Below, in pieces: positions 1-42,114 of a stretch of 64,000 nucleotides of DNA (its first letter is position 1; every line of letters starts with the position of its first letter). The notes below the pieces were generated by a model that saw only the letters and a list, made by a program, of their open reading frames with translations, had not been told where the DNA came from and did not search any database. The DNA comes from Candidatus Omnitrophota bacterium. Its GTDB lineage: Bacteria > Omnitrophota > Gorgyraeia > B26-G9. The stretch is from contig JAHITY010000088.1 in assembly GCA_018817165.1 (NCBI GenBank), positions 2,866 to 66,865 on the forward strand, read 5' to 3'. A program made the position numbers and the translations under genes.

Positions 1-2384
1 CCCTTTTTGCTTAACTTCTTCCAGAAGTGTTCAAGAATATTTTCCATTGCCTGGCGACAATTTTTTAAAGCGTCTCTTCTGTTATCCTTTTGATAATCGC
101 GATCGGCCAATTCCAAATAATGCTTAGGATCAGAATAGTAAATTTTTACTCCGCGTTGTTTTATGATATCAGGAGGAATAAATTGAATATTAGAAACTAA
201 GTCGTTTCGCTTATTCTTATCAGAGGCAAGTTCAAGATTTTTGACAAATTCCTCTCCATGGCAAGTAATAATTTGTTGTTTATCCTTTAAATCTTCATGA
301 GAAAGCAATAATTCGATAATACCGCTTCTATGGTCATCATCAATAGCATTGACGATATCATCGAACACTAAAATTTCAAGACCTTCATTAACGGCTTTTG
401 AAAGTAGTAATACTAATCCAAGACATCTGATATGCCCTTCACTAAGAATTTGCAAAGCATCCAGCCGATTTTCGCTACCTAAAAAAAGTATTTCAATTTT
501 TTGTCCGCTTTCAGAGGGTAAAAATAATTCATTTATTTTTTCAAACTCTGGGTCTTGATAGTTAATAATATTGTAGAATTCAGCAGCCTTTGAAGCGATA
601 TTTTTTGAAATCATATATGGTAAGGAATCACGATATTTTTTCAAATCTACAATTATTTTAGCATATGATGTGCGAAATTGATTGTTACGTTCAATTTCTT
701 TATCAAGAACTTCAATTCTTTTAATTTCTACTTCATTTTGCTTTTTAAATTTATCGATCAATGCTTGAGAAGCATTAAGTGCCCCAACAATATCTTTCTC
801 TCGCGCTTCTATTGTGATAATTTCATCACGCAAACCCTTGAGCTTCTCAATTTCTTCATGCAGCTTACTATACTGTTCGCGTTTCGAAACGAGACTTAAG
901 TTGTAATCTTTTATTACTTTTTTTGTCTCTTTTATAAACGTTGAATGCTTCCGGATCTTTTCTATCTCAGCATTTGTGGAAGCAAGGAACATGTCGACTC
1001 TTTTAATTTCAAAGTTAGAAAGAGTTATCGTCGGCAGCAGATCTGCTTTCGGCTTTATTATATTATAAACAGTATTATAGCTTTGGATATAATCGTTCAT
1101 TGTTCTAGAGTTATCTAAAATGCTTTGAGCTAAAGAATGTATTTTCTCTTCAAGCTCCGCTAAAGATTTTAGTAGATTGTGTTGCTCATTAGCATTTTCA
1201 TATGGATTTTTGGTCACATTATTCAATGGTGTCAAACATGCCGGACAAATGGACTTGTCATAATCATCGCGGCCAGCAAGATCTTTTATCGAATTAAATA
1301 ACGCTTTAAATACAACATCCTTTCCTGCACTAACATATTTTTCTTGTATTTTCTTAAGGTCTTTAATACTTTTTTTAATGTGGGAAATTGAATCTCTGAC
1401 ATTCTGCGGTATTTTTTCATCAATATTATTTGGTATCTCTCTTCCCTTTTCATCTTGAAGTAAAGATATTTTTCCTTTTGTATCACTTTCATCATCAAGT
1501 AACTTCTTGAACTCTCTGATGTTTTTTATATTTGGGGTTCCTAGTTTTTTGATTAATTCAATCTCTTCGCTTTTGAGATTTTGAAGTTTGGTTTTTTCTT
1601 CCGCCAAAGTAGCAATATTTTGTTTATATTTCACTTGTTGTTCTTCAAAAGAAACTTTTAACGAATTGGTGGCTAATAAATGCTTGTCATCAAGAGTATC
1701 CGTAAAGTCTTCAACAAATGAATGGAATGCATCAAGACCGAAAAGAATGGAAATCCGAGCCTGCTGGTCTTTTGGGGTTGTGGCTGCCAGGCGAGCAAAT
1801 GAGTCAATTCTGTTTTTTTCTATGAAACAAAATCGGTAATTTTGAGATGAGGGTTGAACCAGATCCTCTTCTCCGTTATCAATGCTCCCATAAGCATTAG
1901 GTTTTTCCCAATTACCGGTATCAACATTCTGTAAATATTCTTGTATAGGAATTCTCTTAGCATCACACTCTTCAATTTCACCAAGTAACGCGTATTCAAG
2001 GCCTTCACAGAAACTGGATTTTCCAGATCCATTTGGCCCGCACATGTATGTATACTGCGTTTCAAACCGGAATGTTTCCTTTTGCCTAAACCCCCTGAAA
2101 GGACCAATCTCTAATCTTGTTATTTTAGAAACTCTTTTGTGATTACCAGACTCTTTCGAATGTACGGGAGAAACAAAAGGTTTGATGTCCTCACTAAACT
2201 TCTTGATTAGCTCTCCAATTCTTTTTGCCCTTTTACTTTGGGAACGTCCTAAAGGATAAAGTTCGTCTAAATTAGTTGCAATAAGATTTAGAAGCTTTTT
2301 ATCCGTATCGTTAAGTGTTTTATCTTGCTTTATACGTTCTAGCCAGAGATAAAACTCATTCTTTACAATAGCTGGTATGTTCAT
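1..2384 (-). CDS. Rad50/RloC-like ABC ATPase with coiled-coil zinc hook; 3'-truncated by the window edge (C-terminus lies beyond position 1). A candidate anticodon-nuclease or abortive-infection ATPase linked to the type I RM module
   Basis: Hand translation of the minus strand from the ATG at 2384 is open all the way to position 1. A Shine-Dalgarno AAGGAA sits 8 nt upstream, and the start lies 3 nt after the hsdS stop. Motifs seen: Walker A (LEIGPFRGF...YMCGPNGSGKSSF), a long K/E-rich coiled coil with a central CPAC zinc-hook-like motif (DYDKSICPACLTP), an ABC signature (LSEGH), Walker B (LEILVFDD), a D-loop and an H-loop-like ITCHG, followed by more than 100 further residues of extra C-terminal domain. 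The ORF track does not list it because it has no in-window stop; track ORFs 1286..1498 and 1820..2107 are out-of-frame pieces of it. Confidence 0.55.
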   Translation of the reverse strand, partial: MNIPAIVKNEFYLWLERIKQDKTLNDTDKKLLNLIATNLDELYPLGRSQSKRAKRIGELIKKFSEDIKPFVSPVHSKESGNHKRVSKITRLEIGPFRGFRQKETFRFETQYTYMCGPNGSGKSSFCEGLEYALLGEIEECDAKRIPIQEYLQNVDTGNWEKPNAYGSIDNGEEDLVQPSSQNYRFCFIEKNRIDSFARLAATTPKDQQARISILFGLDAFHSFVEDFTDTLDDKHLLATNSLKVSFEEQQVKYKQNIATLAEEKTKLQNLKSEEIELIKKLGTPNIKNIREFKKLLDDESDTKGKISLLQDEKGREIPNNIDEKIPQNVRDSISHIKKSIKDLKKIQEKYVSAGKDVVFKALFNSIKDLAGRDDYDKSICPACLTPLNNVTKNPYENANEQHNLLKSLAELEEKIHSLAQSILDNSRTMNDYIQSYNTVYNIIKPKADLLPTITLSNFEIKRVDMFLASTNAEIEKIRKHSTFIKETKKVIKDYNLSLVSKREQYSKLHEEIEKLKGLRDEIITIEAREKDIVGALNASQALIDKFKKQNEVEIKRIEVLDKEIERNNQFRTSYAKIIVDLKKYRDSLPYMISKNIASKAAEFYNIINYQDPEFEKINELFLPSESGQKIEILFLGSENRLDALQILSEGHIRCLGLVLLLSKAVNEGLEILVFDDIVNAIDDDHRSGIIELLLSHEDLKDKQQIITCHGEEFVKNLELASDKNKRNDLVSNIQFIPPDIIKQRGVKIYYSDPKHYLELADRDYQKDNRRDALKNCRQAMENILEHFWKKLSKK

Positions 2385-2387
2385 TAT

Positions 2388-3560
2388 TTAATTTCCTTTT
2401 ACTTTCAACTCTCCGCTCATCAGCTTTGGCAAAAGCGTATCTCGAAGTTTTTCAAGCGTAGAAATTTGATTTGCATTGTTCTTTAACTTAGGAAATATCT
2501 CTACCAATTGATAGTTTAATTTCTCAATTATTTTCATTGGTGGCATTTTCATTTCATATTCTTTAATTACATTAGCTTGTGCTCTTTGCCTCCCACTCGA
2601 GCCAGACATACTACTAATAGCAAAATCTCTAAAATCTTTATCCTTGGCTAAAATATATGAAATATATGGGTGAAATTGCTCTTTCATCCTTATCACAATA
2701 TATTCTGTCGATCCCCAACCAATTTCCTTATTATCTAAAAACGTCACAAAACAAGTTTTTCCATTTTCTAAGCATGGAGTAATCCTTGCTAAAAGAGTAT
2801 CTCCATTTTGAAATTTCATCCCTGATGTAAATTCTCGTTTATACCAACCCTCTGGATTAAAGGTTGAACTACTTACATTGCCCATTTCAAGGTATGTTGA
2901 GATATTTCCCTTCTTAAGCTGATATGTAGGATTTATATCCGCAATATCTTCAAGGCAACCATCCTCCCACTCCTCCTTAGCCTCTTCCACAAACCACTGC
3001 CTAAAAAGCGTTTCAGCTATTGATTCAAGGGTTTTATTTTGGCGGTGAAGTAAATCAATCTTATCATCCAAACTCGACAATACCCCGGCAATTGCTTTTT
3101 GTTCAGGAAGTGAGGGCAATATAATATCCAAATTTTCAATATCTGAAGGCTTTAATGATGGATATGTTGAAGTTGAAGCCTCAGCGATTATATCCAACTC
3201 CTCAACAATATCATCCGCCGACAAATAAAAATAAATAAACTTCGGGTCGGCTAAGTTTTTATTTGTTTCCAATACAACAAAACCTGTTGAAACAACTAAA
3301 TTTTCTTCTGGCTGAGCTACAAAACCATAATGACGTTGTATCGGTCTTACTGTTGAATAAACAATATCATCATGTTTTACTAGTCGTTTAGCCCTACTCG
3401 GAGCATCAATCAATTCAAGTTCCTGATACCCATCAATCTTTCCACAAGTAATGGAACCTGTATCTAAATATTTAATTACATTAAACTTATAGTCGCGACC
3501 AACACTCCGATTATTCGATGATATAACATCCCCCAACTTACATTCTTTCCAATCAGTCAT
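2388..3560 (-). CDS. hsdS: Type I restriction-modification specificity subunit HsdS
   Basis: Two target-recognition domains separated by the conserved central repeat (LPSLPEQKAIAGVLSSLDDKIDLLHRQNKTLESIAETLFRQWF). The conserved C-terminal repeat TLEKLRDTLLPKLMSGEL is present. Confidence 0.85.
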   Translation of the reverse strand: MTDWKECKLGDVISSNNRSVGRDYKFNVIKYLDTGSITCGKIDGYQELELIDAPSRAKRLVKHDDIVYSTVRPIQRHYGFVAQPEENLVVSTGFVVLETNKNLADPKFIYFYLSADDIVEELDIIAEASTSTYPSLKPSDIENLDIILPSLPEQKAIAGVLSSLDDKIDLLHRQNKTLESIAETLFRQWFVEEAKEEWEDGCLEDIADINPTYQLKKGNISTYLEMGNVSSSTFNPEGWYKREFTSGMKFQNGDTLLARITPCLENGKTCFVTFLDNKEIGWGSTEYIVIRMKEQFHPYISYILAKDKDFRDFAISSMSGSSGRQRAQANVIKEYEMKMPPMKIIEKLNYQLVEIFPKLKNNANQISTLEKLRDTLLPKLMSGELKVKGN

Positions 3561-3647
3561 TATTTACCATCCCACTCTAGTCTTAACTGATTAATTTCTT
3601 TCTCAGAAATGTCCAATTCTATTAAAATCTTTTGCATAATTTCTCTA

Positions 3648-3683
3648 CTTGTTCGGTTACTTATTCGGTTGCTTGTTCGGCAC
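3648..3683. repeat. Three tandem 12-bp direct repeats (cttgttcggtta / cttattcggttg / cttgttcggcac)
   Basis: Read directly from the sequence. They lie in the gene-remnant region between the ORF6N gene and hsdS. Confidence 0.6.
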
Positions 3684-3734
3684 ATTGGGTTTTAAATCCA
3701 ATTTTAGTCTCAAGTTTTACCTTTTTCTCAAAAT

Positions 3735-3953
3735 CTACATCTCTTTAGAGGAGATTTCCACTTTATAGGAAAGCTGCTTCCTGGTAATTTCAGGATGATT
3801 CCTTACCAATCGCAAGATCATTTCTTGGGTAGTTTCTTGGATAGCTTCTTGGGTAGTCTTTTGAGGGACATTCTTAAACCTTATCACAAAACTACCGTCT
3901 ATTACCTGATATTCAGGTAAAGGCAAGCCATCTGCTTTTAACAATTGATTCAT
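3735..3953 (-). pseudogene. Remnant of an AlbA_2/HATPase_c_4-type DNA-binding protein gene of the kind often inserted in type I RM loci
   Basis: The 72-aa ORF carries the characteristic segment GLPLPEYQVIDGSFVIRFKNVPQKTTQEAIQETTQE...ITRKQLS seen in the C-terminal HTH region of those proteins, but the rest of the gene is missing. A further 29-codon ORF (3561..3647) ends in a TAATG overlap with hsdS. Confidence 0.35.
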
Positions 3954-3957
3954 TATT

Positions 3958-4845
3958 TTACAATCTCTCTAATATTTTTAATGCCTGTTTACCAAACTTA
4001 GAAAATGCGAACATTTTCTTCCCCAAATCTTTTAATGATGCCCCAAAATGATAAACATCTTTATTATCAATAATTAAAAATCTGTCATGAGCATCTTTAA
4101 ATTCTTGAATAATAATTTCCGGATATTGCTCATTATGCTTTTTTAAATCCAAAGCAAGCTGTTTTGTTATAACCTTTGTAAAAATCCGCGCAGAAACACC
4201 TTTTTTGCGCTTAGTAAATAATGTCAGAACCGAATCATCAACATAATTATCAATCAGAATAATTGACTTTTTTGCCTTTCGTATAAGATCAGATACAAAT
4301 TTGTAAGCATCAAAAACTTGACCCTCAAAAAATATACCCTGTTTAGGCAATGCGTCTCCGCTCTCTAATGCCTTAAAAACCTGTTCAAATTTTTGATCTG
4401 TTATAATCTGATGTTCAAGCTGTTTTTTCTCCACTTCGTGTAACCTTTGGAATAATTGCCCATTAGACAAAATAAATTTACGCATCGCCACAAACGCGTT
4501 AATAATTTTAATACTAATTTTTACTGCTATATCACTCTTAAGAACTCCCGCGAGCATTGCAATGCCTTGTTCGTTAAAAACATACGGTAAATAACGTCGG
4601 CCACCCTTATTTCCCTTTGAGGTCACAAAATGTGACCTCAAACAATCATTCTCTTCTGTTGTCAGCTGAAACATAAATTCATCGGGAAAGCGTTCTTTAT
4701 TGCGTTTTACCGCTTGATTCAAAATCTTTGTTTCAACACCATAAAGTTCTGCCAAATCACTATCCAGCATAACCTGAACATCCCGCACCGTAAAAATCTT
4801 TCTTTCAACAGCTTCTAATTTAACTATCTCATTTTTCTCCATCAC
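3958..4845 (-). CDS. ORF6N (KilA-N-like) domain protein embedded between hsdM and hsdS
   Basis: The N-terminus IFTVRDVQVMLDSDLAELYGVETKILNQAVKRNKERFPDEFMFQLT is typical of the ORF6N domain. Its position between hsdM and hsdS is also typical. Confidence 0.6.
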   Translation of the reverse strand: MMEKNEIVKLEAVERKIFTVRDVQVMLDSDLAELYGVETKILNQAVKRNKERFPDEFMFQLTTEENDCLRSHFVTSKGNKGGRRYLPYVFNEQGIAMLAGVLKSDIAVKISIKIINAFVAMRKFILSNGQLFQRLHEVEKKQLEHQIITDQKFEQVFKALESGDALPKQGIFFEGQVFDAYKFVSDLIRKAKKSIILIDNYVDDSVLTLFTKRKKGVSARIFTKVITKQLALDLKKHNEQYPEIIIQEFKDAHDRFLIIDNKDVYHFGASLKDLGKKMFAFSKFGKQALKILERL

Positions 4846-4991
4846 TCTTCACCTATTTTAATTTATTCCTCACTTCATACACTGCTTCCGTTATAAGGTC
4901 ACATTTTGTGACCTTATAATGTTTCCAAACCTGCATTGGATTATGTATTTCTTTTTTAGATATCACAATTTGTGACTTCCAATCGTCCATT

Positions 4992-6560
4992 TCATCCTGA
5001 GTTAACTGAAGCCGCATTGACTTTAACTTTTTTCAAATTTTCTTTGATCAATGCGTTTAATTTTTCTTCTTCTTTCAGCTGTTCTTCAAATTCTTTTTTC
5101 AAAGCTGTAAACCGCTCATTAAAATCAAAATCATCTTCTTCATCCGGCAAACCAACATATCTACCTGGAGTCAGAACATAATCAAGTTCTCTAACTTTTT
5201 CTATGGATGTGGAATTACAAAACCCCTTTACATCCTCATAGTTACTTTCAGATTTACGCCAATTATGATAAGTTTGAGCTATATGTTTGATATCATCTGG
5301 TGAAAACTCCTTGGTTCTGCGATTGATCAAATGTCCCATATTGCGGGCATCAATAAACAGAATCTCATCAGTACGATTTCTATATCCGCCATTGGCTTTA
5401 TTTCTGCTTAAAAACCAAAGGCTTGCGGGAATCTGAGTATTTAAAAATAACTTTGCCGGAAGATTAACAATGCAGTCAACCAATCTGGCTTCAATCAAGG
5501 ATTTGCGGATATCACCTTCTCCTGAGGTTTTGGAGGTCAAAGAGCCTTTGGCCAAAACAAAACCCGCCATGCCTTTTGGACTCAGATGATATAAAAAGTG
5601 TTGTATCCAAGCATAATTAGCATTGCCGGGAGGCGGTGTGCCGAATTTCCAGCGGCCGTCATTACGTAGCAATTCACCACTCCAATCACTGTCATTAAAC
5701 GGAGGATTGGCAATCAAATAATCTGCTTTTAGATCTTTATGGCCATCATTTAAAAATGACCCTTCATTATTCCATTTAACTTGAGAGCTATCAATATTGC
5801 GAATTGCCAGATTCATTTTGGCCAAACGCCAGGTAGTTTGATTGCTTTCCTGTCCATAAATAGATAGATCATTTACTCTGCCTTGATGGCTGGATACAAA
5901 CTTTTCTGATTGAACAAACATACCTCCGGAACCGCAGCAAGGATCAAATACCCGGCCTTTGTGCGGCTCAAGCATTTCAACAAGTAATTCGACAACACTT
6001 CTCGGAGTATAAAACTGTCCGCCCTTTTTCCCTTCAGCCAGAGCAAATTCTCCCAAAAAATATTCAAATACATGCCCAAGAATATCAGCACTGCGGGCTT
6101 TGGCATCACCCAACGCAATTTTGCTAATCTCATCAATCAATCCACCAAGATTTGTCGGATCAAGATTGCCACGAGCGTATACCTTAGGCAATACGCCATT
6201 AAGCGATGGATTTTCCTTTTCAATGATATCCATTGCCGAGTCAACTATCTTACCAATAGTCGGCATTTTGGCATTAGAGCGCAAATGATTCCAACGAGCA
6301 ATTCCCGGAACAAAGAAAACATTTTCCGCTTTGTATTCATCTTTATCCTCTGGATCCGCGCCAGAATAACTCCCTTTACCAGCTACAAGTTTATCGTGCA
6401 ATTCTTCAAAAGTATCAGAGATATATTTTAAAAACATTAAGCCTAAAACTATATGTTTGTATTCAGCCGCGTCAATATTCTTTCTAAGCTTATCCGCGAC
6501 TTTCCAAAGCTGTTTTTCAATCGGCTCATCTTGAGTCTTGTTGTTTTTAACTTTTGCCAT
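4992..6560 (-). CDS. hsdM: Type I restriction-modification DNA methyltransferase subunit HsdM (N6-adenine)
   Basis: An N-terminal HsdM_N domain plus the motifs [17 protein letters not shown] and NPPF. Confidence 0.9.
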
Positions 6561-6584
6561 GTTTTCTCCAAATTCTTATAATAA

Positions 6585-7277
6585 TTATAAAATTCCTTGA
6601 TCGCTAAAACTATAGAAACCCTCACTACCAATAATGATATGATCTATTAATTTAATTTGCATCAGTTTTGCAGCTTCACTTAATTCTTTGGTAAATTTTT
6701 CATCTTGAGGACTTGGCTTTATCCTAGCACTGGGATGATTATGCGCGCAAATTATTGATACCGCGAATTTCTGCAAAGCTCCATGGATAATTTCCCGCAC
6801 AATCGGCATGGCGTGATTTACTGTACCTATTGCCGCGTCTTCAATATCAATAATTCGATTATCACTATCAAGATAAACAACCTTGAAAATCTCAGTCTTT
6901 AAATCCCTCATTTGCGGCATAAGAACATCCACAAGCTCTTTTGCTGATTTTATTTTCTGTTTTCCGGCAACAAGTTCATCTTCACGGAACCGCCTACCAA
7001 TCTCAAGAGCCGCCTGAATATGGGCAAGCTTTGCGCTGCCCAAGCCTTTAAACTCTTTCCAATCCCGCGCGTCTGTTTGAGTCATATTGCGAAATGTGCT
7101 AAATTTTTTAAGAATATTACGAGCAAGGTCAATCGCACTGGTGCCTTTAGTTCCGGTGCGCAGAAGAATAGCCAAGAGCTCAGACTTACTCAAAGTTTTC
7201 GCCCCATTCTTAAGCAGCTTCTCTCTGGGCCGATCATCTACTGGCCAACTGATAATACCTTGCGATTTCTTTTTCAT
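6585..7277 (-). CDS. radC: RadC-family JAB/MPN domain protein (UPF0758)
   Basis: A helix-hairpin-helix N-terminus and a JAMM motif (CAHNHPSA...SPQD). Confidence 0.85.
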   Translation of the reverse strand: MKKKSQGIISWPVDDRPREKLLKNGAKTLSKSELLAILLRTGTKGTSAIDLARNILKKFSTFRNMTQTDARDWKEFKGLGSAKLAHIQAALEIGRRFREDELVAGKQKIKSAKELVDVLMPQMRDLKTEIFKVVYLDSDNRIIDIEDAAIGTVNHAMPIVREIIHGALQKFAVSIICAHNHPSARIKPSPQDEKFTKELSEAAKLMQIKLIDHIIIGSEGFYSFSDQGIL

Positions 7278-7583
7278 AACACACCCTTAAAAACAAAAAA
7301 CCGAAGGATGTTTATCCTTCAGCCCCTATTCCAGTTATAACAAATACAATTTGATTTTCATCACATTATTTGATCCCATATTTAGATAAATTCAAAAGCC
7401 AAAAATATTCTTCGCTCAATCCAATAGCCCATCTAGACAATTTCTAAATTATCTAATATTTTACTAGGAATTAAAAAAGATAATAATATGTAATAATTAT
7501 ACTACCCCCGTACTAGTTAAACAACCCCTAAAATTAATGGAGATATAAACTTGCTATATCTCTAAACCTATGGCTATATTGTA

Positions 7584-7913
7584 ATGACAGCAAAGGAGAT
7601 GATTATGGAACAGGCAAAACTCAGGGAAATTATGGGGCATAAAGATTATACATTATCAGAGCTAAAGGCCAAATATAAGGCCTTATATGGCCCAGAAAGC
7701 GCCACACCAAGCAATAAAGTCTACTTATGGCGCAAGATTGCCTATAAACTGCAGGAACTGGAACACGGCGGGCTTTCCAGCCAAGCCCAGGGCAAAATTG
7801 AGGAGTTTATCGAGAAATATGACCCAGTTAACAATAAATTTAAAGATTATAAGATATCCAAATATTCAGATATTTTATCTAAAATTTCCTTAAAAGGAAT
7901 CTGCCCCTTATAA
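7584..7913 (+). CDS. DUF2924-like small protein, typical of integrative-element cargo. The true start is probably the ATG at 7605, preceded by AAGGAG.
   Basis: The sequence LREIMGHKDYTLSELKAKYKALYG...LWRKIAYKLQELEHGGLS matches the DUF2924 pattern. The ORF converges with AbiEii and overlaps it by 67 nt. Confidence 0.45.
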   Translation: MTAKEMIMEQAKLREIMGHKDYTLSELKAKYKALYGPESATPSNKVYLWRKIAYKLQELEHGGLSSQAQGKIEEFIEKYDPVNNKFKDYKISKYSDILSKISLKGICPL

Positions 7914-8794
7914 TATAAAGCCGACGTATTATTATATTCTCTTTCAAAAAGCTTTCTTGTTTTAACATTTTCTAACAATAAAGCTTCCTGTTTTAGAACA
8001 GGAAGTTCCTTATCTTTATCAGGAAATCGACACTCTTTATGATCTAGATATTCTTGTGTTCCAATAAAGTCCTGAACTGTCTCAACATTTAAAAGGCAAG
8101 CAAGATCATAATAATGTCGAATGAAATTTGGAGACAGTTGCCCACTTTCTTGAAATTGACGAAATTTTGTTAAAACTGTTTGCATTTTTTCAACGAATGT
8201 ATACCCAGGATGATAGCATTTTACATCGCAAGCTTTATTATCTAAAACTTCCATATTATTTTTTTGAGCAAAATCAAGAGCCCAAGAACTAATTATCAAA
8301 GGAGTATTGGGAGCAACATTATCAAAACCAACTTCAAGCAAAATCCCCTCTTTTACCCCATCGGCAAATGTAAACGTATTTTTATAGTAAAGCCGAATTC
8401 CTCCACTTCTGTATTTTTTATCATCAAAATCAGTATCACGCTCTACTCTATCTATTCCCTCAATTTGGATATTATTCGCAAGCCAATCATAGTAATTTTT
8501 ACGGCTTTCACAATGCTTTGGTTTATCATGATTTCTTCCAGTCTTAACATTCATCTGCGCAGGTGGTTCGATACGAATATCTATATCTTCGGAAAAACGA
8601 TGAATTATTCCATAGCCCTTAGAAAGTGATGTGCCGCCTTTTAATTCAAATAAGAATTCATTTTTCTGCAATCCATATAACACATGCATTATCCAATAAT
8701 CCTTTTCCACAAGACTACTCTCTATATTATGCTGATGTTCTACGGCTCGCAAAAGTTCTTTAAATTCATGATGGTTATGCAAATAATCAGGCAT
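7847..8794 (-). CDS. abiEii: AbiEii/AbiGii-family nucleotidyltransferase toxin of a type IV toxin-antitoxin / abortive-infection system (DUF1814)
   Basis: Carries the nucleotidyltransferase motif LKGGTSLSKGYGIIHRFSEDIDI. Confidence 0.8.
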   Translation of the reverse strand: MPDYLHNHHEFKELLRAVEHQHNIESSLVEKDYWIMHVLYGLQKNEFLFELKGGTSLSKGYGIIHRFSEDIDIRIEPPAQMNVKTGRNHDKPKHCESRKNYYDWLANNIQIEGIDRVERDTDFDDKKYRSGGIRLYYKNTFTFADGVKEGILLEVGFDNVAPNTPLIISSWALDFAQKNNMEVLDNKACDVKCYHPGYTFVEKMQTVLTKFRQFQESGQLSPNFIRHYYDLACLLNVETVQDFIGTQEYLDHKECRFPDKDKELPVLKQEALLLENVKTRKLFEREYNNTSALYYKGQIPFKEILDKISEYLDIL

Positions 8795-9380
8795 ACATTA
8801 AAGACTCCTCTGTTATCCATTTATTAAATAGAGTTTTTGTTCTTTCTCCCGCATAAGAATTGAAAACTTTTTTCATCTTTGATTTCGATCCTCTCAAAAC
8901 ATTTTCTTTAACACTTTTAAGAACATCCTCTCTATTTTCTGCTAGCTCATTTAAATTATTCAACAAATCAACCAATAAAAACTCTTTAGAGAGATGTTTA
9001 GGAAATTTATACTTTAAATGAAAATAAAACAACTTTCCTCCAAGCATGAATTGTCCATGGCGTTTATAATTATAAACAACCCTCTTATTATACAGTTGTG
9101 TTGTTCCCACGCCCAATGAATTATATAAATTAGGAGTAGTTAAAAGGAAATCTTTACTTTTTAAAAAAACCTGCACAAGTTTTTCATCCTCTGGAGGAAC
9201 ATTCCCAAAGGATGCTTTCATGGGATAATAATACAATCCCTGCGATACTTTCTGCAAAACCTTTTCTTTTACTAATTGCTTTAAGTGTCTATCAACAGCA
9301 TTAGACCATTGCGCTAGATCACTCCTACGATAAACCCGTCCTGGTTTCAGATTCTTTTTTAACTCTTTAATTGCCTTCAT
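8787..9380 (-). CDS. abiEi: AbiEi-family antitoxin / transcriptional regulator
   Basis: A winged-HTH-like N-terminus (RVYRRSDLAQWSNAVDRHLKQLVKEKVLQKV). It overlaps the downstream AbiEii gene by 8 nt. Confidence 0.6.
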   Translation of the reverse strand: MKAIKELKKNLKPGRVYRRSDLAQWSNAVDRHLKQLVKEKVLQKVSQGLYYYPMKASFGNVPPEDEKLVQVFLKSKDFLLTTPNLYNSLGVGTTQLYNKRVVYNYKRHGQFMLGGKLFYFHLKYKFPKHLSKEFLLVDLLNNLNELAENREDVLKSVKENVLRGSKSKMKKVFNSYAGERTKTLFNKWITEESLMYA

Positions 9381-9837
9381 TTTCTCTCACCTCACACTAC
9401 AAGTATACAGTCTTATTTATTATATTGCAAGTTTTTTAATTTAAATTTCATGCACTTTATTGACTTAAAAACAGTTTAATTATAGAACACATCAACTATA
9501 TTTAACTCTCAATTAATCATCATTAACGCAACATTAAGATATAATTATAGTTACAGCAAACACAAAAATTAACCAGTTGCATATCCTTTTACTTGAGAGA
9601 TAAAAAACAGAGAATTTCTAGTTAATGCTTCAAATCTCACCCATTAATCTTAACAATATCCGCCATAAATTCATTTACTAAAACTGATTCGCGAATCGCG
9701 ATATTAGAGATAAAGAGATACTAAAAAAAGCAGAAATTAGAACATAGGGTTTAGGGATTAGGCCTCCCCAGATAAAAGCAGATTATTTAGATAGCAGACA
9801 ATAAATATAAGTCATAACTCTTTGATGTGTTTGCAGA

Positions 9838-9872
9838 TACAAAAGGCCTGATAAGTAATTCTTATCAGGCCT
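9838..9872 (-). terminator. Rho-independent terminator-like hairpin
   Basis: A perfect 12-bp stem (aggcctgataag/cttatcaggcct) with a taatt loop. On the minus strand it is followed by TTTTGT. Confidence 0.4.
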
Positions 9873-9908
9873 TCTATTATCTCTCAAACTGGTGTTCGAG
9901 AGATTTAT

Positions 9909-9935
9909 TTGGCTGCCCCGCAGAACATTGAACCG
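9909..9935 (-). repeat. Partial direct repeat of the tRNA-Gln 3' end (candidate att core)
   Basis: The 14 nt ttggctgccccgca are identical to the tRNA-Gln 3' end (10216..10229). A further partial match (ttgaacc) follows. Confidence 0.6.
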
Positions 9936-10180
9936 TCGTGTCGCTCCCCTTGAAAAGCAGGTCCACTCACTCCCTAAGGGAGCACTCTTTCAGTTCCCCC
10001 TTAGTATTCCTCCTCCCTACGCAAAGAAGTTCCAGTACGCCGATCCCGAATGAAGTTGCCTAAGAAAAATATCCATCGGGATCCCGAAGAATCACCACAG
10101 AAGTCGAGGCATTCGGGATAAGGGAAAAACAGTCTTTTTCCCTAAAACCCTTTTTTATGGTTCGAGTCCAGGGCATAAAT

Positions 10181-10205
10181 AAAAAACCCACACTAAAAGT
10201 GTGGG
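10181..10205 (-). terminator. tRNA-Gln terminator hairpin
   Basis: A stem cccacac/gtgtggg flanked by an A-run and a T-run, immediately 3' of the tRNA. Confidence 0.5.
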
Positions 10206-10216
10206 TCTTATTATTT

Positions 10217-10291
10217 TGGCTGCCCCGCATGGACTTGAACCATGAACAAATGATCCAGAATCATCCGTGTTGCCAATTACACCACGGGGCA
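10217..10291 (-). tRNA. tRNA-Gln (anticodon CUG)
   Basis: The hand-folded 75-nt sequence has a 7-bp acceptor stem, U8, a D-loop with GG, anticodon loop UUCUGGA, T-loop TTCAAGT and an encoded CCA. Confidence 0.85.
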
Positions 10292-10333
10292 GTAAATTTA
10301 TCTATCAAATAATAGCAGAGTTAATTGTATTTG

Positions 10334-11641
10334 TCAAATATCGAATTCTTTTGCTTTTAACTTGTTGATCACAGATGTAAGCCTGGCAACCGATTTTTCT
10401 TTGCCTAAGAATTCAATAATTTCAAATATTCCCGGACTAACCGTCCCTCCGGTTAAAGCCACCCGCACTGGATGAATCAGCTCTCCGGCATTAATTCCCA
10501 AAGCATCAACCAAAACTCGAACATTTGCTTCTATTTGTTGTTTATCAAACGGATTGCTTTTTTCTAAAGCCTGGACAAATTTCTCCAAATAATCACAGAC
10601 ATTATCAATCTTTAAAAATTTATCCACAGCATCTTGGTCATATTCTATTTCATCTTTAAAGAAAAAACCGGCTAATTTGGAAAAATGTTCTAAAGTCGGC
10701 AAGCGAGTTTTATACAAAGCAATCAAACCAGTCAGCCATTTCTGATCATAAGTATCCGAAATATAACCCTTTTCCTGTAAACTGGGAATAATCATCTGTG
10801 TCAGTTTATCAATATCCATTTCTTTAATATATTGACCATTAACCCAGCTTAAACGGGTCATATCAAATATTGCCGCGGTTTTATTTACCCGTTTTAAAGA
10901 AAATTCTTTGACAAGAGTTTTTAAAGTGAACATTTCTTTATCCGTTCCTGGATTCCAGCCCAGCAGTGCCAAGTAATTAACCACTGCTTCCGGCAAGTAA
11001 CCTTGATTGCGATATTCAGTAATTGCCGTTGCCCCATGACGCTTAGACATCCTCGAGCCGTCTTCGCCATGAATCATCGGAATATGCACAAATTTCGGCG
11101 GTTTAAGCCCTAGGGCTTCATAAAGCATGATCTGCTTCGGAGTATTGGCAATATGGTCATCTCCCCGGATAATATGGGTCATTTCCATCAAAGCATCATC
11201 AACCACACAACAAAAATTATACGCCGGACTGCCGTCGGATTTCAGCAATACTTGGTCTTTTAATTGCTCAGTTCCGATCGTAATTTCACCGCGTAAAACA
11301 TCAAAGAACTTTATCGCCGCGTTTTCCGGAATCCGATAAATAATCGCCTCACCGTCTTTATAGGCTTTTCCAGAATCAAGCAGCTTTTTCGCGTATTCAC
11401 GATAAATATCAAACCGCTCACTTTGATAATATAATTCATCCCAATCCATTCCCAGCCATTTTAAACTATCTAAAATTTCATCCAGATATTTTTTTTCTGA
11501 GCGGACCTGATCAGTATCTTCAATTCTCAGGATAAATTTTCCCTTAGTAGAACGGGCATACAACCAGTTAAACAAACAAGTCCGCGCACCGCCAATATGT
11601 AAAAATCCAGTCGGTGAAGGAGCAAAACGAACTATCGGCAT
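10334..11641 (-). CDS. gltX: Glutamate--tRNA ligase
   Basis: A HIGG motif (FLHIGGARTC), KMSKS (RMSKRHG) and the overall class I GluRS architecture. Confidence 0.9.
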   Translation of the reverse strand: MPIVRFAPSPTGFLHIGGARTCLFNWLYARSTKGKFILRIEDTDQVRSEKKYLDEILDSLKWLGMDWDELYYQSERFDIYREYAKKLLDSGKAYKDGEAIIYRIPENAAIKFFDVLRGEITIGTEQLKDQVLLKSDGSPAYNFCCVVDDALMEMTHIIRGDDHIANTPKQIMLYEALGLKPPKFVHIPMIHGEDGSRMSKRHGATAITEYRNQGYLPEAVVNYLALLGWNPGTDKEMFTLKTLVKEFSLKRVNKTAAIFDMTRLSWVNGQYIKEMDIDKLTQMIIPSLQEKGYISDTYDQKWLTGLIALYKTRLPTLEHFSKLAGFFFKDEIEYDQDAVDKFLKIDNVCDYLEKFVQALEKSNPFDKQQIEANVRVLVDALGINAGELIHPVRVALTGGTVSPGIFEIIEFLGKEKSVARLTSVINKLKAKEFDI

Positions 11642-11670
11642 AATAATATTTCCTTTGTTTTAGTCTAAAA

Positions 11671-11688
11671 GTCTAAGAGTTCTTAGAC
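11671..11688 (-). terminator. Hairpin downstream of dxs (stem gtctaag/cttagac)
   Basis: A perfect 7-bp stem with a 4-nt loop and a T-run on the minus strand. It belongs to the TCTTAGAC repeat family. Confidence 0.4.
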
Positions 11689-11745
11689 TAAGAGTTTTTA
11701 AATAAATATTTAACAAACCATTAGCTATTAGCCATTGACCATCAG

Positions 11746-15272: not shown

Positions 15273-16374
15273 CTATGAGCTGGTAACACTCCACTTTAAA
15301 AAACCTTCGAGAAAATCATCGATCTTTCCATCCATGACAACCGGAACATTGCCGGTTTCCACTCCCGTGCGATGATCTTTGATCATTGAATAAGGATGCA
15401 TAACATACGAACGGATCTGAGAGCCCCATTCTATTTTTTTCTTCAGAGCATTATGTTTGTCCGCTTCGGCTTGTCTTTCTTTTAATTCCAGCTCATAAAG
15501 CTTTGATGTTAACATTTTCATCGCCATCGCTTTATTCTTTATCTGTGAGCGCTCATTCTGACACTGCACAACTATATTTGTCGGTAAATGAGTAATCCGG
15601 ACAGCGGAATCAGTAGTATTAACATGCTGTCCGCCGGCACCGCCGGCTCGGCAGACATCTATGCGTAAATCATCTTCATTGATTTCAATATTTATATCCT
15701 GATCTACCTCAGGAATGACTTCCACGGAAACAAAAGAAGTATGCCGGCGTTTATTCGAATCAAAAGGCGATATTCTCACCAAACGGTGCACACCGTTTTC
15801 GCCTTTTAATTTTCCATAAACAAATATTCCTTTGATCAATATAGTCACACTTTTCACCCCGGCTTCTTCGCCTTGTAAAAAGTCAATCGTATCCACACTA
15901 AACCGATTATTTTCCGCCCAGCGGGTATACATCCGCAAAAGCATACTCGCCCAATCACAAGACTCTGTGCCTCCGGCTCCGGCATGAATACTTAAAAAAG
16001 CATTTGCTTGATCATCGGGTCCTGAGAGCAGTAAGTTTATTTCCAGATTATCAACTAATTTTTCCAGTTCAGAAAGTTCTTTTTTGATTTGCTTTAGCGT
16101 ATCAGTATCATCAGCTTCTACAAGTTCTAATAATTCTCCGATGTTTTTTACATCTGCTTCAGCTTTTTGGATAGGTTCGGCTTGACGTTTGAGCAGTTTT
16201 AAATCTTTTATAATTATATTCGCTTTTTCCTGATCACTCCAAAAATCAGAAACAGCCATTTTTTCTTCTAGTACTTTAATTTTAGATGACTTTGTAGCCA
16301 GGTCAAAGATACCCCCTGAGCTGTTCAAATTGATCAGAAATAAGTTTAAATTTTTCTTTTAATTCTTCATGCAT
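15273..16374 (-). CDS. prfB: Peptide chain release factor 2 with a programmed +1 ribosomal frameshift
   Basis: Carries GGQHVNTTDSAVR. In frame 0, the ATG at 16374 gives 25 codons ending ...CAG CTC AGG GGG TAT CTT TGA C (LRGYL-stop, at about 16297..16299). The +1 frame continues DLATKSS... to 15273. The track ORF 15273..16328 starts from an internal TTG in the +1 frame. Confidence 0.85.
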
Positions 16375-16487
16375 ATTAATAAATCCTTTTTGAGTTATGG
16401 CCAGCTAAACAATTTTACTCTTCAAACTTTATTGATGACCTGCCAACCGAAGCTTACTTCTTTGAAGCTCCATTCGCTAGCGTAGGT

Positions 16488-40302: not shown

Positions 40303-42114
40303 TTAATCCTCTTTTTGGTCTTTAATCAAAGTTCTTTGGTATGGTTTAAAACTTTTAATTTCCATTCCGCCAAAATCACTTGCCGGTGGCGGCGGTAAAT
40401 AGCTTTCCTGCTCTTCCTTAATTCTATCCACCTGTTCATAATCCTGAAACGATTTTATCCCGGGAGCCCCGATAACATCACCTTGCGCGGCAACCAATGC
40501 CTCACCGCTGATAATCGTGGGCGTAATCATAATTAATAATTCTGTAACATTTTTAACATCGCTTGATTTCTGAAATAAAAGGCCGATAATCGGGATGCTG
40601 CTGATAAACGGAACTCTTTGCTTTATCTGTACTTTCTCTTCCCGGCGCAAACCGCCGATAACAAGCGTTGCCCCATCTTTAACCAATGCCGTTGTTTCCG
40701 CTAATGAAGTGTCTACTATTGGGATTTGATTGCCTGTAGGGGTAACTAATGTTTCTAATACGCTGCTGACTTCCGTCTTTAATTTTAAGTCAATAAAGCC
40801 ATCTTCATTAATCCGCGGAACAACATCCATTTGAATACCAATATCAATAAATTGCACATCTTCCGATATTGTACTAGTTGATTGTCCGGAAGTAGTAGTT
40901 GTGGTTACATATGCCTCACGCGCTCCAACGTGAATTCTTGCTTCTTGATTATTGGTTACCGCGATCTTAGGATTAGAAAGCAGCTTAGACGACGTAACTG
41001 TCTGGATATAAGTTAATACCATGTCCAGATCATTGCCGCCGATAATTCCGAGATGCAGACCGTCCAATCCAACCATTGCGCTGCTGCTGTTATACACTGA
41101 TGTTGTCCCGCTAAACGGATATGAACCTACATTTCCCACATCTTCATAAACTTGTCTGCGCGAACGCCAATCAGCAGTTGCTGAGCCAACCGAAGTAAAC
41201 GGAGCTGATCCAAGATAAGTCAAGCTATTCGAATCAGAAGCCGCGTCAAATAAGCCTTCCCATTCAACCCCTTTATCTGTCCCATCTGAAATTTTAGATT
41301 TTACAATCTTAATATCAATTAAAACTTCTTTTGTTTTTTGATCCAAAGCCTTGATTAATTCTTCTATTTCTTCCATTCTTTTGGGAAAAGTCTGGACAAT
41401 AACCTGATTAAGCCGTTCATCAGCTTTAATTGATCCGACTTTTTTACCGGAAAGCCTGTGACTTAAAGTTTCTTCTACACTCTTCGCTTTAGCATAATTC
41501 AAGGTAAATATCTTTACAATATTCTTTTTTTCAAATTGGCTGAGCAGTTCCTCCATCCGCGCAAGATTCGATGGAGAATCCATGCATAGAATATTCCCTG
41601 ATTCCTGATCAACCAATATTCTGCCTACATCACTTTTAACTGCTTCCAATAAATTAAAAGCCTGTTCCGGAATCGCGTAATCAAGATGAAAAACTTTTAC
41701 CTTGCGGATATCGAAAAAATTCTTACCATAAAGCACTGCGTATTCCTGCTGCGTCATAACATTATAAATATCGCCGACCTTATCATAGGCCAAACCATTT
41801 GAACGAAGCATAATATCAAAGACATCCTGCACGGGAACTGACTCAACGACCAGCGTTATCCGCCCGGCAACAGATTTTGTGGTTACGATATTAAGCCCGC
41901 TTTTCAATGAAAAATATTTCAAAGCATCATTGATATCGATTTTTCTCAAATCCAAGGAAATAACACCATCAACACCTTTACTCAAAACCGCGATCTTAGG
42001 CTGCGGCGGGGCAATCAAAGGCGTTGAAGCCCCGGCATCTTGCGCCCAGCCGGATTTAAAATTAATCAGGATAAAAACTGCAATTAAACTAACCGCAATC
42101 TGTTTTTTACTCAT
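40303..42114 (-). CDS. Secretin (GspD/PilQ/MshL family), paralog 1
   Basis: The same domain set as 36258..38075, at about 55-60% identity by eye. Confidence 0.85.
   Translation of the reverse strand: MSKKQIAVSLIAVFILINFKSGWAQDAGASTPLIAPPQPKIAVLSKGVDGVISLDLRKIDINDALKYFSLKSGLNIVTTKSVAGRITLVVESVPVQDVFDIMLRSNGLAYDKVGDIYNVMTQQEYAVLYGKNFFDIRKVKVFHLDYAIPEQAFNLLEAVKSDVGRILVDQESGNILCMDSPSNLARMEELLSQFEKKNIVKIFTLNYAKAKSVEETLSHRLSGKKVGSIKADERLNQVIVQTFPKRMEEIEELIKALDQKTKEVLIDIKIVKSKISDGTDKGVEWEGLFDAASDSNSLTYLGSAPFTSVGSATADWRSRRQVYEDVGNVGSYPFSGTTSVYNSSSAMVGLDGLHLGIIGGNDLDMVLTYIQTVTSSKLLSNPKIAVTNNQEARIHVGAREAYVTTTTTSGQSTSTISEDVQFIDIGIQMDVVPRINEDGFIDLKLKTEVSSVLETLVTPTGNQIPIVDTSLAETTALVKDGATLVIGGLRREEKVQIKQRVPFISSIPIIGLLFQKSSDVKNVTELLIMITPTIISGEALVAAQGDVIGAPGIKSFQDYEQVDRIKEEQESYLPPPPASDFGGMEIKSFKPYQRTLIKDQKED

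Follow-up and report, generated by a model that had tools for sequence, protein, structure and literature searches.

Just past the tRNA-Gln gene in a 64,000-nucleotide (nt) stretch of the Candidatus Omnitrophota contig JAHITY010000088.1 (assembly GCA_018817165.1, positions 2,866 to 66,865), hereafter the window, lies a GC-rich block (9923..10214) which, together with the 15-nt repeats that flank it, is one copy of a small non-coding element that we name X. This element represents an apparently undescribed family in Omnitrophota, whose members sit just past tRNA genes. Copies measure approximately 190-270 nt, with a core of approximately 150-230 nt, and occur at at least five tRNA loci across contigs, behind tRNA-Gln, tRNA-Leu(CAG), tRNA-Ser(UGA), tRNA-Ser(GCU), and one further tRNA. 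Their layout comprises a palindromic terminator (in most copies), an inverted tRNA arm, a conserved core, and the tRNA 3' end copied in direct orientation. X is hence more specific and less ordinary than the integration scar that an earlier note on this DNA had considered: these are previously unannotated, tRNA-end-associated miniature elements. All coordinates below are those of the window unless a locus is named, the sense strand of the element is that of the tRNA (minus), and L-numbers designate loci fetched from related Omnitrophota contigs.

The tRNA-Gln(CUG) gene (10217..10291, minus strand; ARAGORN, Rfam tRNA score of 59.4 bits) has an encoded CCA and is left intact beside a direct repeat of its own 3' end, as found with tRNA-targeting integrative elements. 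The 14-mer TTGGCTGCCCCGCA has only two exact occurrences in the 64 kb, at 9909 and 10216, and the full exact repeat is TTTGGCTGCCCCGCA (9908..9922 and 10215..10229). The earlier note had thus rightly seen an exact repeat in the same orientation, but it is 15 nt long and not 14, and its spacing is 307 bp and not about 295. The proximal, attL-like copy consists of the final 13 nt of tRNA-Gln plus two A. Beyond the 15 nt, the resemblance is imperfect and extends as far as the T-arm (TTGAACC at 9928 and 10235), which corresponds to the degenerate T-arm-like stretch that had been pointed out. A 15-mer found twice within ∼300 bp is far beyond chance. The GC content of the block is indeed raised, as had been claimed, at 0.457 versus 0.363 for the window and 0.23-0.35 for the flanks.

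Comparison with orthologous loci, a check proposed in the earlier note, identified relatives that do not carry the block. In L083, whose glutamyl-tRNA synthetase (GluRS) is 92% identical to that of the window, tRNA-Gln is joined straight to a homologue of window 9934..9771 (91% over 165 nt), and since the tRNA match and the flank match overlap by 27 nt, this locus is devoid of the 307-bp block. The tRNA-Gln site is also empty in L089 (GluRS 77%; flank 83.5% identical over 309 nt, to window position 9614) and in L008 (GluRS 53%; flank 79% over 84 nt), the empty site being the tRNA joined to TAAATCTCTC. The attL junction of the window reads ...CATGCGGGGCAGCCAAA followed by ATAATAAG, the attR junction ...TTCTGCGGGGCAGCCAAA followed by TAAATCTCTCG, and the attB junction in L083 ...CATGCGGGGCAGCCAAA followed by TAAATCTCTCA; in all three relatives the empty site corresponds to attL's left half joined to attR's right half. 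Judging from these alignments, the block is a true insertion, with junctions corresponding to attL, attR, and attB in the Campbell geometry. Integration at the tRNA 3' end, as first surmised, is thereby upheld.

Two terminators frame this history. Hairpin H1 (9880..9903) and terminator B (9843..9873), which together span 9843..9903 on the minus strand, directly follow tRNA-Gln in L083, L089, and L008; because they adjoin the tRNA in these empty relatives, we consider them to be its native trailer, pushed away in the window. The strong hairpin that had been described at 9844..9872 is real and terminator-like, but it is the native tRNA-Gln terminator displaced by the insertion. Terminator A (10183..10209), a long palindrome with A-tract, GC-stem and U-tract that is bidirectional (both strands), is absent from the same three empty sites, and analogues precede X in L090, L092, L093, and L096. 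On this comparison, terminator A arrived with the insert, and it is predicted to end transcription of the reconstituted tRNA. A scan for the intrinsic-terminator consensus returned four sites versus 0.9 expected, terminators A and B among them. The suggestion that the block is co-transcribed after tRNA-Gln is doubtful, as the strong terminator A lies between them. Past terminator B, ∼230 nt more are common to the window and L089, and the defense island of the window begins only after this shared stretch; the 15-nt repeat therefore does not bound the island. We found no further island-bounding repeat above chance to the left in the window (allowing up to three mismatches), and a match at 40484 was discarded as an island boundary, lying in an unrelated region with no tRNA-like context.

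The same core recurs behind other tRNA genes. Using as nhmmer query the window copy with a nested insert removed (see below), we detected core homology in the X copies behind tRNA-Ser in L092 (E = 8e-14), behind tRNA-Leu in L090 (7e-11), and behind tRNA-Gln in L090 (1e-4) and L096, and no second copy in the window. The homology resides in the core, and not in the tRNA-derived arms alone. L090 (GluRS 76%) carries X at three places: the copy behind tRNA-Gln (11527..11713) ends with TGCGGGGCAGCCA and is followed by a second, partial X, and the copy behind tRNA-Leu(CAG) (about 4890..5109) ends with a copy of the tRNA-Leu 3' end, CCACCTTCAGTACCA. In L087 and L088, X directly follows tRNA-Leu, CACCTTCGGCACCA is duplicated, and the native flank ...GGATGGCAGGCCATCAATAAAGTTTGA... 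comes after the second copy; this flank directly follows tRNA-Leu in the window, where the tRNA-Leu site is thus empty. In some relatives X stands alone between tRNA-Leu and prfB, with no island nearby. Truncated copies are found behind tRNA-Leu in L081 to L083 and in L089, and the one in L083 runs right up to the start codon of prfB and is not separated from tRNA-Leu by a terminator. A metagenome scan with the pattern of hairpin P2 (see below) returned four loci, of which three are real, namely L092 (tRNA-Ser(UGA)), L093 (tRNA-Ser(GCU)), and L091 (the one further tRNA), the last two carrying the 5' module of X; the fourth, L094, is a chance match inside a gene. At tRNA-Gln, L096 has an X whose inverted arm matches the tRNA end perfectly over 20 nt and whose direct arm has decayed, and L095, L087, and L084 hold remnants. 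Overall, truncated copies are seen in L083, L089, L091, L092, L096, L087, and L084, with the 3' arm lost in L092 and L096, and the length of the repeat varies between 14 and 27 nt among copies, again with imperfect similarity continuing into the T-arm. Sites among relatives are therefore filled, empty, truncated, or tandem. Accretion of tandem copies or remnants at the same tRNA, an option already raised in the earlier note, does occur, in L090 (the second, partial X), L095, and L001.

Read along its sense (minus) strand, the window copy begins after terminator A with the inverted tRNA arm (10159..10175, sense TGCCCTGGACTCGAACC), in which the T-loop, T-stem, and acceptor 3' strand of tRNA-Gln are present as their reverse complement, except that the complement of GCCA is missing. 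A plus-strand, T-arm-like GGTTCGAGTCC had been reported at 10159; it is present, but is no tRNA remnant, being the inverted tRNA-Gln T-arm with which family members start. The 5' core module follows (10117..10158), conserved in 11 copies and sharing a 23-nt exact match with L087; it includes hairpin P2 (10121..10143), with a GACUG loop (GAYUG across the family), and the motif CCCUUAUC. The junction of CCCUUAUC and CGGCGUA lies at about 10117..10124 and 10033..10042. In the tRNA-Leu copy of L090 and the tRNA-Ser copy of L092, CCCTTATC and GGCGTA are contiguous, whereas the window copy is interrupted there, between CCCUUAUC and GGCGUA, by a nested, palindromic mini-insertion of 74 nt (10043..10116, no strand assigned) with ATC on both flanks. 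This insertion is unique to the window copy, absent from all other family members, and present once in the window; it entered the copy later and might be a separate tiny hairpin element. It holds the inverted repeats ATCCCGAATG (10043) and CATTCGGGAT (10110) and the palindrome TCGGGATCCCGA (10076), so that the palindrome and long inverted repeats noticed earlier exist but belong to a segment that other copies lack. The 3' core (9935..10042), homologous to other copies by nhmmer, comprises CGGCGUACUG, P3 (10009..10031), hairpin P4 (9974..10004), the motif GGAGUGAG (9966..9973), P5 (9946..9962), and the motif GCGACACGACGG (9933..9944), all on the minus strand. The copy closes with the attR-like direct tRNA arm (9908..9934, minus strand), a degenerate T-arm followed by the exact 15-nt copy at 9908..9922, which is 88% identical over 42 nt to the 3' end of L090's tRNA-Gln copy. 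No open reading frame (ORF) of at least 60 amino acids (aa) is found in 9381..10333. Reading X as a small protein gene was rejected, as frames, starts, and stops are not conserved across copies and indels, the 74-nt insertion among them, have lengths that three does not divide; the open stretches that do exist in X are attributed to GC content.

In the core, hairpins P2 and P4 stay paired by way of compensatory changes. Across 11 sequences, 95% of the P2 cells are paired, eight of the ten pairs have changed on both sides, none of 500 shuffles scored as high, and pairing falls sharply when the partner is slid. In P4 (eight sequences), 90% of the cells are paired and seven of 13 pairs show double changes, again with none of 500 shuffles reaching that level. 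RNAalifold independently predicts both hairpins. P2 and P4 contain 10 G-U cells versus no A-C cell, the G-U pairs arising only on the tRNA-sense strand, which is therefore the folding strand, as RNA or as single-stranded DNA. The earlier description of the segment as structured is borne out by this covariation, and not by stability: the folding z-score of 9838..10216 (-8.5) is driven mostly by three terminator-type hairpins, and the core alone (9908..10178) reaches only -1.6. Folding energy was accordingly dropped as evidence of structure in the core of the window copy, and the case for structure rests on covariation among homologues.

The arms are matched to the neighboring tRNA. We scanned 77 tRNAs over all fetched loci and found downstream inverted copies scoring at least 11 only at X sites, except in L033, an exception that probably stems from an adjacent tRNA-Glu. 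The inverted arm of the window copy forms a duplex of -27.4 kcal/mol with the end of tRNA-Gln versus -12.6 to -16.3 kcal/mol with Leu and Ser ends, and throughout the family inverted arms pair best with the end of their own tRNA (Gln -27 to -45, Leu -25, Ser -35 kcal/mol). Within the window copy, the inverted (10159..10175) and direct (9908..9934) arms are also mutually complementary (-19.7 kcal/mol).

None of the known families or elements that we compared matches X. Rfam 15, searched at gathering and at permissive cutoffs, gave no core match at E-values up to 10 for the window and up to 1 for L090, L092, and L096, only tRNAs and spurious sub-threshold hits; the search recommended earlier thus left the integration reading intact, no known RNA family having matched. 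ARAGORN called true tRNAs only in the window and relatives, with no transfer-messenger RNA (tmRNA) and no extra tRNA, and neither the tRNA nor the tmRNA model of Rfam matched X, which we therefore do not regard as either. BLAST against phage and plasmid records returned no meaningful match, five core patterns run on viral contigs gave nothing or chance k-mer matches, and a family profile run with nhmmer over ∼300 fetched viral loci found no true homologue. A full-text literature search, including a 2026 Omnitrophota genome survey, revealed no description of such elements. We rejected the homing CRISPR RNA of type V-K CRISPR-associated transposons, the IS110 bridge RNA, the TnpB/IscB omega RNA, and the retron non-coding RNA, based on the absence of an adjacent cas, recombinase, or reverse transcriptase (RT) gene and of sequence resemblance. 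A group II intron was set aside for want of an Rfam intron match and of an ORF in a core of ∼150-230 nt; a miniature inverted-repeat transposable element (MITE) with a fixed-length target-site duplication because the repeat length varies between 14 and 27 nt and its boundary is not sharp; and an integrase-bearing element because X has no ORF of at least 60 aa and no conserved frame.

Several relatives have a small GIY-YIG ORF (84-124 aa) immediately upstream of tRNA-Gln, and L092 has one in the same position at tRNA-Ser (L083 10913-11268; L087 11376-11636; L089 11970-12460; L092 1250-1624, minus strand; remnants in L095 11395-11520 and L096 11335-11425). In L083 and L089 it is preceded by a duplicated tRNA 5' fragment broken by inserted hairpins. 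This unit looks like a homing-endonuclease-type element that targets these same tRNA genes on their 5' side. It is missing from the window, since only 42 nt separate gltX and tRNA-Gln. GIY-YIG was rejected as a mobilizer of X: L083 and L089 have GIY-YIG and no X behind tRNA-Gln, and the window and L090 have the converse.

We favor, at about even chances, the view that X is a mini-element of the non-autonomous kind, which integrated through recombination inside the 15-nt segment shared with the tRNA 3' end. X would enter the tRNA 3' end by recombination in this shared segment and swap the terminal nucleotides and terminator of the tRNA for its own, such that the tRNA stays functional and the original 3' end, with H1 and terminator B, is pushed 307 bp downstream. 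Were this to happen again and again, tandem copies and remnants would result. The joining may be the work of a recombinase provided in trans or of strand exchange driven by homology, with target choice set largely by the tRNA-like arms of X and not by a dedicated protein. The fold of the sense strand would serve the life cycle of the element, either as RNA or as folded single-stranded DNA whose paired arms mimic a tRNA-gene end, and an excised circular form would have GCGACACGACGG..tRNA arm joined to ATAATAAGACCC. That X spreads as a mini-element, and not through repeated deletion, is indicated by the same contiguous core at different tRNAs. A bolder proposal, which we hold to be improbable, is that X or its RNA programs its own insertion site: the arms would specify the tRNA end by base pairing or homology and retarget one core to Gln, Leu, and Ser without a dedicated sequence-specific integrase, acting either as a single strand whose fold resembles the duplex target or as a tRNA-like RNA on which the enzymes of tRNA processing would work.

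Several observations weigh against integration of a mini-element. We found no recombinase, transposase, or RT linked to any X copy, and the genes called beside X in L087, L090, L095, and L096 gave no recombinase-family match. No free or circular form of X was seen, nor any near-identical pair of copies in one genome, within the ∼20 kb considered per genome. In the tRNA-Leu copy of L090, a gap of 34 nt separates X from the tRNA end, which is not what simple Campbell integration would predict. In every case the real tRNA is a better pairing partner for the inverted arm than the direct arm of X itself, so that the idea of the two arms pairing with each other is not specifically supported. The covariation stems from few independent lineages with two or three core subtypes, and the G-U excess could come in part from strand-biased mutation. 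Finally, the repeats could have driven deletions from an ancestral filled state, the direction of gain and loss being one that we infer.

Much of the structural evidence would also suit a host-beneficial family of structured small RNA genes, with a tRNA-like acceptor helix ending in GCCA or ACCA, in which the repeat would be functional mimicry and the patchy distribution gene loss; RNase P, 3' trimming, and CCA addition enzymes could process or recognize such an RNA. The compensatory changes in P2 and P4 and the sense-strand-specific pairing (10 G-U versus no A-C) speak for it, as do the loop and junction motifs GAYUG, GGAGUGAG, and GCGACACGACGG, conserved beyond the needs of pairing, and a terminal helix that begins exactly at the acceptor-stem start and leaves NCCA single-stranded. 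The truncated X of L083 is probably even transcribed with its neighbors, there being no terminator after tRNA-Leu and prfB being abutted. Yet in most copies a strong terminator separates X from the tRNA promoter, and we found no convincing promoter of its own. Truncation is frequent and includes loss of the 3' arm (L092, L096), a genome can carry multiple and tandem copies, and close relatives have empty sites with att-like junctions. The inverted arm fits the neighboring tRNA better than the 3' arm of X itself, there is no T-arm, neither ARAGORN nor Rfam recognizes the element, and the core of the window copy is not unusually stable (z = -1.6) and is broken by the 74-nt insertion. We thus think an RNA gene family unlikely.

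The direct repeats of the tRNA 3' end and the displaced native flank are also what an inert scar would leave, that is, the att-proximal arms remaining after internal deletion of a larger integrase-bearing island, or the tandem junction of two islands. The tRNA-Gln locus is an island hotspot, judging from the cargo in the window, L089, and L008, and remnant partial tRNAs are known from serial integration (10.1101/2020.12.28.424599). However, the order P2, P3, P4, GGAGUGAG, P5 is identical behind Gln, Leu, and Ser tRNAs, which independent deletions would not match, X stands alone between tRNA-Leu and prfB, and strand-specific covariation is not expected of a dead scar. The adjacent island, moreover, begins past the native terminator and ∼230 nt more, and is not bounded by the repeat. 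With the same compact core at several tRNAs, some of them island-free, a scar left by the adjacent island or by a large element since deleted, as put forward in the earlier note, is probably not the explanation, and we rate a scar of either kind as a poor candidate. As for a chance match or an assembly artifact at a repeat-rich tRNA locus, the frequent breaks of relatives' contigs at this tRNA (L081, L082, L085, L086) could be held in its favor, but an exact 15-mer found only twice in 64 kb and the same architecture in different samples and sources (NCBI for L087, L090, and L096, Logan for L088, metagenome for L091 to L093) make it hardly credible.

On the upstream side of tRNA-Gln the window carries core genes (gltX, dxs, xseB, xseA, prfB, and tRNA-Leu(CAG)). 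A sigma-70-type promoter (TTGACA-17-TATTAT, 10309..10337, minus strand; 11 of 12 consensus positions, with a TG extension) lies directly upstream of the tRNA. The GluRS gene gltX (10334..11641, minus strand) adjoins tRNA-Gln, and its product is 100% identical to a protein publicly annotated as glutamate--tRNA ligase of a Candidatus Omnitrophica metagenome-assembled genome and 65-92% identical to the closest other Omnitrophota GluRS found. The start of prfB (16300-16375, minus strand) holds an ordinary release factor 2 (RF2) +1 frameshift site, AGGGGGTATCTTTGAC, which is why the listed ORF begins at TTG 16328. The downstream side, toward lower coordinates, is the defense island, with AbiEi/AbiEii, RadC, ORF6N, and type I hsdM/hsdS. 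What comes after this tRNA-Gln trailer varies from genome to genome: AbiEi/AbiEii, RadC, ORF6N, and type I restriction-modification in the window (1-9613), and a large serine recombinase, DUF2924, and an SNF2/methylase island in L089 (12860-15100). L008 has a 2.8-kb HEPN/MNT (toxin-antitoxin) and DUF1016 islet (3441-6270) bounded by a 21-nt tRNA repeat. According to the MenT literature, toxins of the AbiEii type are nucleotidyltransferases that reportedly modify the acceptor ends of tRNAs; that AbiEii lies near a mimic of the tRNA end is probably coincidental. In several independent assemblies of close relatives the contigs break off here: those of L081 and L082 stop exactly at the tRNA-Gln 3' end and those of L085 and L086 stop 183 nt past gltX, which would fit population heterogeneity or repeats at a hotspot.

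Other small units occupy the same position in further relatives. In L001 (GluRS 76%), which was the top match in a scan of genome contigs, two tandem 187-bp units follow tRNA-Gln (4511-4884) and belong to a sequence family different from X; they are tRNA pseudo-copies that run from the anticodon arm to CCA, and their anticodon loop and T-loop are the exact points at which hairpins have been inserted. One such hairpin, cccagaattgaactttgttctggttctggg, resembles hairpins within the 5' pseudo-tRNA fragments of L083 and L095. Downstream of the tandem units, a GC-rich stretch (L001 4930-5080) contains GGTGAAAATCC and GCCAC-like motifs reminiscent of a cobalamin riboswitch. In the distant Omnitrophota locus L011 (4616-4756), tRNA-Gln is followed by a long palindromic terminator, ∼85 nt, and a 16-nt repeat of the tRNA 3' end, a layout analogous to X and smaller. 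Neither the tRNA gene nor the repeat copy of L011 has an encoded CCA, and the layout suggests duplication at the DNA level.

X is gene-less, and nonetheless restores the tRNA, brings its own terminator, and appears behind several tRNAs with arms matched to each. Should the element itself be mobile, it would show how little is required for tRNA-targeted insertion, and it hints at targeting specified by nucleic acid and not by protein. Should X prove to be an RNA gene, a new class of tRNA-mimicking RNA would have come to light in a poorly known, uncultivated phylum. In practice, X explains unannotated GC-rich intergenic blocks in Omnitrophota metagenome-assembled genomes, offers a marker for strain-level variation, and may contribute to the contig breaks at tRNA-Gln in relatives.

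Group IIC introns insert just after intrinsic terminators, and X likewise lies immediately 3' of a terminator hairpin and has a structured, RNA-like core; unlike these introns, it is far too small, has neither domain V/VI nor RT, and is flanked by direct repeats. Cis-mobilizable elements (CIMEs) are att-flanked, integrase-less derivatives of integrative elements. X would resemble them and MITEs in being short, non-coding, dispersed, often truncated, terminally inverted-symmetric, and presumably mobilized in trans. In contrast to MITEs, its "terminal inverted repeats" change with the target tRNA and represent no fixed transposase site, its flanking repeat of 14-27 nt is no fixed-length duplication, and no autonomous parent was found in the loci searched. 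The ends of X would pair as an acceptor-like helix with a single-stranded NCCA tail, as in tmRNA, viral tRNA-like structures, mascRNA, and YrlA, and its ∼200-270 nt are tmRNA-like in size, but X differs from tmRNA and tRNA-like RNAs in having no T-arm, no G3:U70 pair, and no tag ORF, in copying the neighboring tRNA in its arms, and in its patchy, often truncated occurrence.

The ends of tRNA genes are classic landing pads for genomic islands, and to our knowledge the elements that use them encode their own integrases. Like P4-type islands, prophages, and Prochlorococcus tycheposons, X sits at the tRNA 3' end and restores it with an element-borne copy; it also shares with tRNA-targeting islands the direct repeat on the far side, serial insertion, and a mixture of filled and empty sites. 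Successive integrations of tRNA-targeting elements at one tRNA push older copies distally and leave partial tRNAs (10.1101/2020.12.28.424599). X departs from these islands in having no integrase or any other gene within its ∼0.2-0.3 kb, in its extra inverted copy of the tRNA end and strand-specific covarying hairpins, and in combining one core with arms for at least four different tRNAs. The attP(+) site of CTX-phi and integron attC sites provide another analogy. The target of X is the end of a tRNA gene and not dif or attI, no Xer/IntI-type recombinase is linked to it, and X, without a cassette ORF, is nowhere near the size of a phage. Like these sites, however, X would combine inverted and direct target-like copies on one strand with a short spacer and strand-specific folding, and its two copies are able to pair, as seen in the duplex energies, the cognate specificity, and the strand asymmetry. 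By this analogy, a folded single-strand substrate would be expected to give rise to the layout that integrated X displays, namely direct copy, short spacer, inverted copy, body, and again direct copy.

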